DNA of 64,000 nucleotides from Candidatus Foliamicus sp. (GCA_965249285.1 OZ252226.1:1788302-1852301), one strand, 5' to 3'. Positions 8,584 to 10,292 are shown, counted from the first letter of the stretch. Program-made: numbers and translations. Notes: generated by a model from the sequence alone, not told the origin.

Positions 8584-10248
8584 CTAGGCGCCGGCGGCGC
8601 GAGCCGCCTTGGCCGGCAGATCGCCGCGCTGCCGGCAACTCACGGCTGCGGCAACGAACCCGTCGAAAAGCCGATGCCCATCGCGCGGCGTTGAGGTGAA
8701 TTCGGGGTGAAACTGGCTGGCCAGAAACCAGGGGTGCGATGGAAGCTCCACCACCTCCACCAGGCCGTCGCCGGACCGCCCGGAAAATCCCAGCCCGGCT
8801 TCGCGTAACGCCTCGAGGTAGTGGTTGTTGAACTCGTAGCGATGCCGATGCCGCTCGTGCACGGTCTTGCTGCCGTACTCCCGGTGCGCCAGGCTACCCT
8901 CCGCGAGGCGACAGGCCTGGGCCCCCAGGCGCATGGTTCCGCCCTTATCCGAGTCCGCGTCGCGCCGCTCCACCTGGCCGGACTCATCCACCCACTCGGT
9001 AACCAGCGCCACCACCGGATGCGGGGTAGCCTGGTCAAACTCGGTGCTGTTGGCGCCCTTTAGTCCGGCCACGTTGCGGGCAAACTCGATCACCGCCACC
9101 TGCATCCCCAAGCAAATGCCTAAGTACGGAATCTCCTTCTCGCGGGCGTGGGTGACGGCGCACACCATCCCTTCAATGCCGCGCTGGCCGAATCCCCCCG
9201 GCACCAGGATCGCATGCACACCGGCCAGGCAATCGGCGCCGCTATCCTCGACCTCCTCCGATTCGATGTGACGCAGCCGCACATTGACGCCGACGCGGCG
9301 GCCGGCATGCCCCAGGGCTTCGTTGAGCGAGATATAGGAGTCGCGCAGGTCCATGTACTTGCCCACCATGGCTATCGTGACTTCGCCCTCGCAGGCGCGG
9401 CCCGCCTCCACTACCTGCTCCCACTCGGACAGGTCGGCCGGAGGCAGATCCATGCGGAATTGCCGTACCACCACCTCGTCCAGGCCCTGGTTTCTCAGCT
9501 CGATGGGAATCGCATACAGGTCGTCCATATCGCGGGCGGAAAATACCGCCGACTCCTTGACATTGGTGAACATCGCAATCTTGCGCCGCTGCTCGTCCGG
9601 CAGCGGAAGTTCCGAGCGGCAAACCAGAGCGTCCGGCTGAATCCCGATCGAACGCAATTCCTTGACCGAATGCTGAGTGGGTTTGGTCTTGATCTCCCGA
9701 GAAGTGGCCACGTACGGCACCAGCGTGGCATGCACGAAGGCCACGTTCTCGCGGCCCTTCTCCAGGCCAATCTGACGGATCGCCTCAAGGAACGGCAACG
9801 ACTCGATGTCGCCGACGGTACCCCCGACTTCGGTGATACAGACATCGGCGTCACCTGCCCCCAGGAACACGGAATGGCGGATTTCGTCGGTAATGTGGGG
9901 AATCACCTGCACGGTCGCGCCCAGATATCCTCCCCGGCGCTCACGGCCGATGACCGCGTTGTAGATGCGCCCGGTGGTGAAATTGGAGTCCCGCCCGGGC
10001 TTGCTGCAGCGCACGAATCGTTCGTAGTGTCCCAGATCAAGGTCGGCTTCAGCCCCGTCGGCCGTCACGAACACCTCGCCATGCTGGAAGGGGCTCATGG
10101 TGCCGGGATCCACGTTGATGTACGGATCCAGTTTGATCATGCTGATAGACAAGCCGCGGGCCTCAAGAATGGCGCCCAACGAGGCGGCGGTTATGCCTTT
10201 CCCCAGCGAGGAAACCACGCCGCCGGTAACGAAAATGTAGCGGGTCAT
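8584..10248 (-). CDS. pyrG: CTP synthase
   Basis: [51 protein letters not shown]. Confidence 0.99.
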
Positions 10249-10292
10249 GCCACTCCGACCACTGCATTGGATCGGACAACTACGATATCACA
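10249..10292 (-). promoter_or_regulatory. Putative extended -10 promoter and SD-sequestering leader hairpin of pyrG
   Basis: TGTG-A-TATCGT (10292-10282), then AGTTG TCCGATCCA-ATGCAG-TGGTCGGA G TGGC ATG; the hairpin covers GGA of the GGAG SD. Confidence 0.55.

Follow-up and report, generated by a model that had tools for sequence, protein, structure and literature searches.

A candidate pyrC-type start-site switch in the pyrG leader of an uncultured gammaproteobacterium and its relatives

How might a cell adjust its cytidine triphosphate (CTP) synthase to the supply of CTP when the gene carries a leader of just 27 nucleotides (nt)? The question is raised by pyrG in a stretch of DNA from Candidatus Foliamicus sp. 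(GCA_965249285.1 OZ252226.1:1788302-1852301), the whole of which, 64,000 nt in length, was analyzed and is referred to below as the window. The explanation that fits this leader best, and that we consider moderately probable from the comparisons that follow, is a start-site switch of the kind described for pyrC of Escherichia coli and Salmonella, in which the balance of CTP and guanosine triphosphate (GTP) would set the first transcribed base and the first base would set translation. The original prediction had proposed this for the minus strand of the window; its letters, strand, and coordinates (C7 = 10275, G9 = 10273) all match the sequence, and the hairpin that it placed over the GGA of GGAG is predicted by ViennaRNA for transcripts starting at T6 and at C7. 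The elements of the leader, all on the minus strand, are as follows.

10292-10282 (-): extended -10 element TGTGATATCGT, that is, TGTGA-TATCGT, read from the sequence (TRTGn at 10292-10288, hexamer TATCGT at 10287-10282)
10281-10272 (-): A1 G2 T3 T4 G5 T6 C7 C8 G9 A10, numbered from the end of the -10 hexamer
10273..10276 (-): candidate start-site cluster T6 C7 C8 G9, read from the sequence (C7 = 10275, G9 = 10273)
10254..10276 (-): 5'-terminal hairpin UCCGA(U)CCA/UGGUCGGA, from ViennaRNA folds and conservation
10276-10268 (-): 5' arm of the hairpin, TCCGATCCA as DNA and UCCGAUCCA as RNA
10267-10262 (-): hairpin loop, ATGCAG (RNA AUGCAG)
10261-10254 (-): 3' arm of the hairpin, TGGTCGGA as DNA and UGGUCGGA as RNA
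10256-10253 (-): Shine-Dalgarno sequence GGAG, its GGA inside the 3' arm
10248-10246 (-): ATG of pyrG, separated from GGAG by the 4 nt TGGC (RNA UGGC)
10237..10253 (-): second small hairpin GUGGC/AUGACCC/GCUAC with the AUG in its loop, from minimum-energy folds
8584..10248 (-): pyrG, CTP synthase, 554 amino acids, ATG at 10248 (NCBIfam NF003792, E = 3.2e-244)

The CTP synthase model NF003792 aligns to the pyrG product over residues 1-540, from residue 1, and no -35 element can be recognized for the promoter TGTGA-TATCGT. Set beside the E. coli K-12 pyrC leader (TATCCT TTGTG T6C7C8G9 GC, 15 nt, GCCGGAG, 11 nt, AUG), the window leader (TATCGT AGTTG T6C7C8G9 AUCCA, 6 nt, UGGUCGGAG) has the same five-base spacer followed by T6 C7 C8 G9. 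Both have a weak -10 hexamer of the sigma-70 type and then G5-T6-C7-C8-G9, with C at 7 and 8 and G at 9, and in both the two 5' C residues pair with the GG of the 3' arm (GCCGGAG in pyrC, GUCGGAG in the window). The energies computed for the hairpin from each possible start are as follows.

Start at position 6: E. coli pyrC -9.7, window pyrG -9.5 kcal/mol
Start at C7: E. coli pyrC -8.1, window pyrG -7.9 kcal/mol
Start at C8: E. coli pyrC -5.0, window pyrG -4.8 kcal/mol
Start at G9: E. coli pyrC -3.0, window pyrG -2.8 kcal/mol

The two ladders agree within 0.2 kcal/mol, so that the pyrC-like geometry claimed for pyrG is borne out by the letters and by near-identical energies. At pyrC and pyrD, a high CTP/GTP ratio leads to starts at C, whose two extra C residues complete a hairpin sequestering the ribosome-binding site, and a low ratio leads to starts at G, from which translation proceeds (PMC6524683). 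This published mechanism fits the predicted anatomy of the window leader point for point. When 16 nt of coding sequence were included in the ViennaRNA folds, the energy was -15.2 kcal/mol from T6 and -13.6 kcal/mol from C7, and the hairpin was no longer the minimum-energy fold for starts at C8 or G9. With 15 nt of coding sequence in the fold, GGAG had a mean unpaired probability of 0.03 to 0.18 for the T6 and C7 starts (0.18 for C7); this value rose to 0.63 to 0.83 for the G9 start (0.63 with the 15 nt of coding sequence). By computation, the C7-start hairpin (-7.9 kcal/mol) sequesters the Shine-Dalgarno sequence and the G9 start (-2.8 kcal/mol) has no stable hairpin, the latter with some doubt left by a fold into the coding region that is discussed below. 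The second small hairpin stacks directly onto the first, but it is mostly coding sequence and its conservation is therefore uninformative either way.

From the observed sequence, its conservation, the covariation of the helix, and the computed energies, we infer the start sites, their dependence on the nucleotide pools, and the translational effect, for this organism as for its clade. In this scheme pyrG would be driven by its own sigma-70 promoter, TGTGA-TATCGT, an extended -10 promoter independent of a -35 element, and C7, C8, and G9, at 7, 8, and 9 nt past the hexamer, would all be open to RNA polymerase as start positions. At a high ratio of CTP to GTP, most transcripts would begin at C7 (10275), the two C residues at their 5' end would pair with the GG of GGAG, and the completed 5'-terminal hairpin (about -8 kcal/mol) would hide the ribosome-binding site, so that little CTP synthase would be made. 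When CTP is scarce, initiation would move to G9 (10273), leaving a hairpin of about -3 kcal/mol, a free ribosome-binding site, and translated CTP synthase. As with pyrC and pyrD in E. coli and Salmonella, no regulatory protein would be needed for CTP to control its own synthase.

If the leader works in this manner, its parts should be retained among close relatives. Members of the clade, at 87 to 99% PyrG identity, were found in a large protein database (P0001-P0016), where they are labelled "Gammaproteobacteria bacterium" at most; among species-representative genomes, the best PyrG match was at 72% identity among the matches listed. Fifteen clade loci were fetched, giving 12 distinct leader sequences at 87 to 94% PyrG identity. 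All 12 share one block, TGTGtTAnnnT, 5 bases, CCCG, AUCC, a loop of 6 to 9 nt, (G)UGGUCGGAG, 4 bases, and ATG. The original prediction had named conservation of TCCG and the stem in relatives as a check, and CCCG and both stem arms were kept in 12/12. TGTGnTAnnnT is invariant in the 13 clade sequences, while the DNA further upstream diverges; little or nothing changes in the -10 element, CCCG, both arms, and GGAG, whereas the loop differs in almost every sequence and everything 5' of TGTG is unrelated among members. Only the window has T6, the other members having C6, and its positions 5-9 are thereby the same, letter for letter, as those of E. coli pyrC. In one relative (L086), a G-to-A change in the 3' arm turns a bulged or wobble U into a U-A pair. 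Another hexamer, TAGTCT (10297-10292), was considered as the -10 element since distant relatives use TAGTCT or TAGACT, and was rejected because the close clade varies there (GGTCTG, CAGTCT, GGGTGT) while TGTGnTATCGT is invariant.

The same relatives show where the conserved block begins. In L087-L089 (999-1850), panB-panC replace tilS, the gene upstream of pyrG in the window, and in L081 (1032-1820), tilS and pyrG are separated by a Transposase_20 (PF02371) gene; in all four loci, the 60 nt before the pyrG ATG are unchanged, and synteny breaks exactly at the pyrG promoter. Since the block remains constant despite the change of upstream gene, it belongs to pyrG and begins at the extended -10 element, as expected of an independent promoter. 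This bears on the alternative that there is no promoter here, pyrG being read through from tilS and the hairpin acting as a generic translational damper or as an RNA processing site in a polycistronic mRNA. It is true that tilS and pyrG are on the same strand with a spacing of 127 nt, and that a consensus promoter scan of the region gave no sigma-70 match; the scan, however, requires a -35 element, which extended -10 promoters lack, and this accounts for its empty result. Read-through also leaves aside the conserved block that starts at TGTGnTAnnnT, unchanged with panC or a transposase gene upstream, the boundary of the helix 7 nt after the hexamer, and the strong hairpin (-52.5 kcal/mol), resembling a repetitive extragenic palindromic (REP) element, that separates tilS from the pyrG promoter in the window. 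We therefore regard it as very unlikely. Two terminator-like matches in the region were set aside, as both straddle the pyrG start codon. Rfam 15 gave no relevant match at the leader (E ≤ 10 over 9900-10900; gathering scores over the whole window), and a megablast search of a plasmid collection gave no match.

Beyond the clade, the comparison covered 73 pyrG loci from more distant Gammaproteobacteria whose upstream sequence was long enough. The motif TAnnnT-N5-YCCR was found within 250 nt upstream of the pyrG start codon in 34/73, preceded by TGn in 24 of these 34 (that is, 24/73 loci carry TGnTAnnnT), and the frequency of TAnnnT-N5-YCCR in control blocks elsewhere in the same loci was 1.8%. 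The spacer is specific: compared with 34 loci for N5, the other lengths tried gave 1 to 4, except for N9 with 9, and the reverse strand gave 3; we take the N9 matches to be second matches within one motif, e.g., CCCATCCG. Members include Steroidobacteraceae- and Woeseiaceae-like metagenome-assembled genomes (MAGs), Marinobacter, Pseudomonas (128 to 175 nt upstream), an Enterobacteriaceae MAG, and E. coli itself, where pyrG is preceded by TATACT GCTTT CCCG (L096, NZ_CP027459.1, 520-590). According to a nascent-RNA study, the region of the E. coli pyrG promoter in which transcription initiates is "CCC" (PMC12709180), and the homologous motif is therefore a true promoter whose starts lie in the C run.

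Does the helix recur with the motif? An ungapped helix of at least 6 base pairs (bp) starting exactly at C7 was found in 25/36 loci with leaders of up to 95 nt, and in 21 of these 25 helices the partner of C7 lies 4 to 10 nt before the AUG, at the position of the Shine-Dalgarno GG. There are 13 further loci beyond the clade in which the helix from C7 pairs with the ribosome-binding GG, and 11/24 non-clade leaders reached p ≤ 0.05 in shuffles of the last 22 nt of the leader, against 1.2 expected. The arms compensate from lineage to lineage: CCGAUC/GGUCGG in the window clade, and elsewhere CCGUCGU/ACGACGG, CCGUCGUC/GGCGGCGG, CCAUCAG/CUGAUGG, CCGUUCGGGG/UCCUGAACGG, and CCCGUUU/AAACGGG (L111). When covariation was counted on an alignment of 17 lineages (A2), positions 7-13 were 95.8% paired and 5/7 pairs had changed on both sides, with a covariation score of 0.391 versus 0.192 ± 0.033 in shuffles (0/500 shuffles reached 0.391). 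As controls, sliding the partner columns left 30 to 49% paired, and positions 4-6 were only 31% paired.

Several observations weigh against the start-site switch. Because the best helix from C7 served as the anchor of alignment A2, the alignment is fitted to the structure. In a less biased check, in which leaders were folded with 22 extra upstream bases, the helix containing C8 began at position 7 in 12/25 and at positions 5-8 in 20/25, which places the 5' edge of the helix where transcription canonically starts relative to the -10 element. Within the clade, the stem is invariant (only L086 and L090 differ) and so has almost no covariation of its own; its 3' arm is the ribosome-binding site and its 5' arm the start region, and each may be conserved independently. 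A transcript from G9 can instead fold with the coding region (-9.9 kcal/mol), in which case GGAG is still partly covered (unpaired probability 0.63, and 0.38 in L084). In E. coli, pyrG has the motif, but no helix is predicted to join the 5' end to the ribosome-binding site; the motif is therefore conserved for a reason independent of the hairpin. Finally, tests on this one sequence give weak values: the z-scores of the fold are -2.0 (T6 start) and -1.3 (C7 start), the pattern TGNTANNNTNNNNNYCCR occurs once in the window versus 0.64 expected, and a shuffle test of the 5' 9-mer against the ribosome-binding region is not significant (p = 0.10), because the 15-nt target is G-rich.

On its own, then, the leader is not beyond chance, and it exceeds chance only via conservation in relatives and covariation across lineages. 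Those weak statistics are what would favor a mere chance match in a G+C-rich intergenic region, a view that is contradicted by the 12 relatives with their variable loop, by the motif in 34/73 loci against 1.8% of control blocks, and by the covariation, and that we consider extremely improbable.

Another objection is that conservation and covariation show that the helix matters, not that it switches. The promoter and hairpin could be real and the start site static, with a constitutive 5' stem-loop that protects the mRNA from 5'-end-dependent decay or fixes translation at a low level; a protective stem-loop would likewise begin at the first transcribed nucleotide. Such a stem-loop leaves unexplained the rigid N5-YCC-R (C at 7 and 8, purine at 9) in 34/73 loci and the same arrangement at pyrC and at the hairpin-less E. 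coli pyrG, and it does not explain why the partner should always be the ribosome-binding GG. It is unlikely in our view.

The C run itself suggests another possibility. Uridine triphosphate (UTP) is sensed by reiterative transcription at pyrBI, codBA, and upp, and CTP could be sensed likewise on the C run, high CTP yielding non-productive poly-C transcripts and the hairpin being secondary. Relatives and E. coli do have CCC at positions 6-8, and 10.1% productive slippage was reported at the E. coli pyrG CCC start region (PMC12709180). The T6 of the window, however, leaves only two C residues where runs of at least three are normally needed (PMC6524683): its start reads TCC where that of the relatives reads CCC, and the relatives may therefore still be subject to reiteration. 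Nor does reiteration explain a helix that covaries with the ribosome-binding site, and we judge it unlikely.

Since E. coli pyrG keeps the module without the helix, the element shared by the wider set of loci is the start-site module, and its read-out is specific to the lineage. We would give about an even chance to the broader proposal of a gammaproteobacterial pyrG control module, consisting of an extended -10 element, N5, and C-C-C-purine, that mediates product feedback on CTP synthase by start-site choice and has several lineage-specific read-outs; the covarying helix to the ribosome-binding site would be the read-out in at least 10 lineages, including that of the window, and elsewhere, as in E. 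coli, it would be a different one. The read-out does appear to differ between lineages. Unlike E. coli, a MAG labelled Enterobacteriaceae (L052, 2950-3003) has the full helix, UCCAUCAG/CUGAUGGA. Pseudomonas and relatives (L043, L048, L057, L058, and L059) have TAGACT ACGCT CCCG TCT at 128 to 175 nt upstream of pyrG, so that the leader should be long; closer to the gene there is a conserved segment, CCCCGGCGG...GACCGC. In three Marinobacter/Oleiphilaceae-like loci (L045, L070, and L078), leaders begin CCCAUCUUGAGAUGACAAUCUCC, and a GAGAU that lies between the 5' CAUCU and a downstream AUCUC can pair with either one but not with both; such exclusive pairings, located at the start site, suggest a read-out of another kind for this module. 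A pattern scan of metagenome contigs gave 30 matches, of which only L114 and L124 (both of the clade) and L111 (a new A+T-rich lineage) lie at pyrG, the rest being chance matches. The L111 leader (SDBS01000418.1, about 9015-9081, minus strand) is A+T-rich, reading TGTGTTAATAT TTAAT CCCGUUUUUAAUGC...AAACGGGAUUUUUUU AUG, and carries this module together with the helix CCCGUUU/AAACGGG. The combination of TRTGn-TAnnnT-N5-CCCR and a helix that begins at position 7 can serve in annotation as a signature of pyrG promoters from uncultured Gammaproteobacteria.

The surroundings of the leader in the window contain the following further features. On the minus strand, the gene order is accA, a DUF1838-like gene, tilS, pyrG, kdsA, and eno.

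8576-7689 (-): kdsA, downstream of pyrG and followed by eno
10303..10369 (-): REP-like palindrome CTGGGAACGAGGGC...GCCCTCGTTCCCAG, between the tilS stop and the pyrG promoter (arms 10310-10335 and 10337-10362)
10376..11362 (-): tilS, short form, about 328 amino acids, stop at 10378-10376; TilS genes of the same length were called in relatives
11411-12304 (-): gene between accA and tilS with no NCBIfam match; its counterparts in relatives are a weak match to DUF1838 (PF08894)
707-817, 13580-13657, 28446-28542, 37448-37525, 42906-42958, 43922-44045, 44464-44514, 51819-51871, and 54175-54227: matches to the REP arm elsewhere in the window (list not exhaustive)
44058-44421 (-): bacterial RNase P RNA, class A (313 bits), with REP-like copies on both flanks
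49777-49864 (-), 52772-52929 (-), and 56461-56532 (+): four tRNA genes

The REP-like copy at 10303-10369 folds at -52.5 kcal/mol (z = -6.9), and its arm sequence has 28 matches with up to two mismatches in the window versus 1 expected, mostly as facing pairs about 25 to 50 nt apart; among the clade loci compared, the palindrome was not found at the tilS-pyrG position. An open reading frame of 120 amino acids in another frame (10245-10607, minus strand) spans the tilS-pyrG spacer, its stop overlapping the pyrG ATG as ATGA. It was judged spurious in this G+C-rich sequence, and a frameshifted TilS C terminus was ruled out, as tilS ends sensibly at 10376, TilS of relatives is of the same length, and the region is unconserved.

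If the broader proposal of a gammaproteobacterial module is right, direct product feedback on CTP synthase by start-site choice would be far more widespread than pyrC and pyrD. The switch would sense the very nucleotide that CTP synthase makes, the shortest possible feedback loop, from product to start-site choice to translation of the enzyme, without a regulatory protein or riboswitch and all within a 27-nt leader. That the same module has a ribosome-binding-site hairpin in the clade and in many MAG lineages but lacks it in E. coli amounts to a clean natural experiment, and this contrast could help to settle the control of E. coli pyrG, which has been described as "not fully elucidated."

Among known systems, E. 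coli codBA and upp resemble the proposal for the window in having alternative starts a few bases apart that are chosen by the nucleoside triphosphate pool. They are UTP-sensitive and have a long T run with abortive stuttering, whereas the window has only CC, plus a hairpin over the ribosome-binding site. Bacillus subtilis and Lactococcus lactis share the gene itself: low CTP raises pyrG expression, and polymerase senses the nucleotide at initiation without a regulatory protein, as is proposed for the window. Firmicute pyrG has a GGGC start region, poly-G addition, and a leader terminator disrupted by the poly-G (PMC7039003, PMC12709180). In contrast, the window start region is UCCGAUCC, with no G run, its 27-nt leader reaches the AUG without a terminator, and control is predicted to be read out in translation. 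The differences from pyrC lie in the dimensions and the setting. The window loop is 6 nt compared with 15 in pyrC, its stem is 8 bp with a bulged U compared with 6 bp, its GGAG lies 4 nt from the AUG compared with 11, and its promoter has an extended -10 element (TGTGn). The target is CTP synthase, whereas pyrC and pyrD encode dihydroorotase and dihydroorotate dehydrogenase, and the host is an uncultured gammaproteobacterium with PyrG about 63 to 72% identical to that of named genera.

For pyrG of E. coli, a 2020 paper (PMC7818426) refers to Turnbough & Switzer 2008 in stating that CTP control seems to work through a switch of start sites, as it does for pyrC and pyrD. The suggestion in the original prediction that this pairing of mechanism and gene may be undescribed thus does not hold. 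E. coli and the window share the gene, the -10/N5/C6 C7 C8 G9 geometry, and the conserved motif; in the 49-nt leader of E. coli no helix is predicted to link the 5' end with the ribosome-binding site, while the window has the full pyrC-type hairpin and T6 instead of C6. As E. coli pyrG is without the helix, its read-out must differ from that of the window. In the portions of the literature consulted, in which Turnbough & Switzer 2008 is represented through PMC7818426, no demonstration of lineage-specific versions of the pyrG start switch was found. The window leader is a new example and not a new mechanism; what may be new is the complete pyrC-type hairpin on pyrG in this uncultured clade and many other lineages, the covariation of that hairpin, and a promoter module conserved across Gammaproteobacteria with different read-outs.

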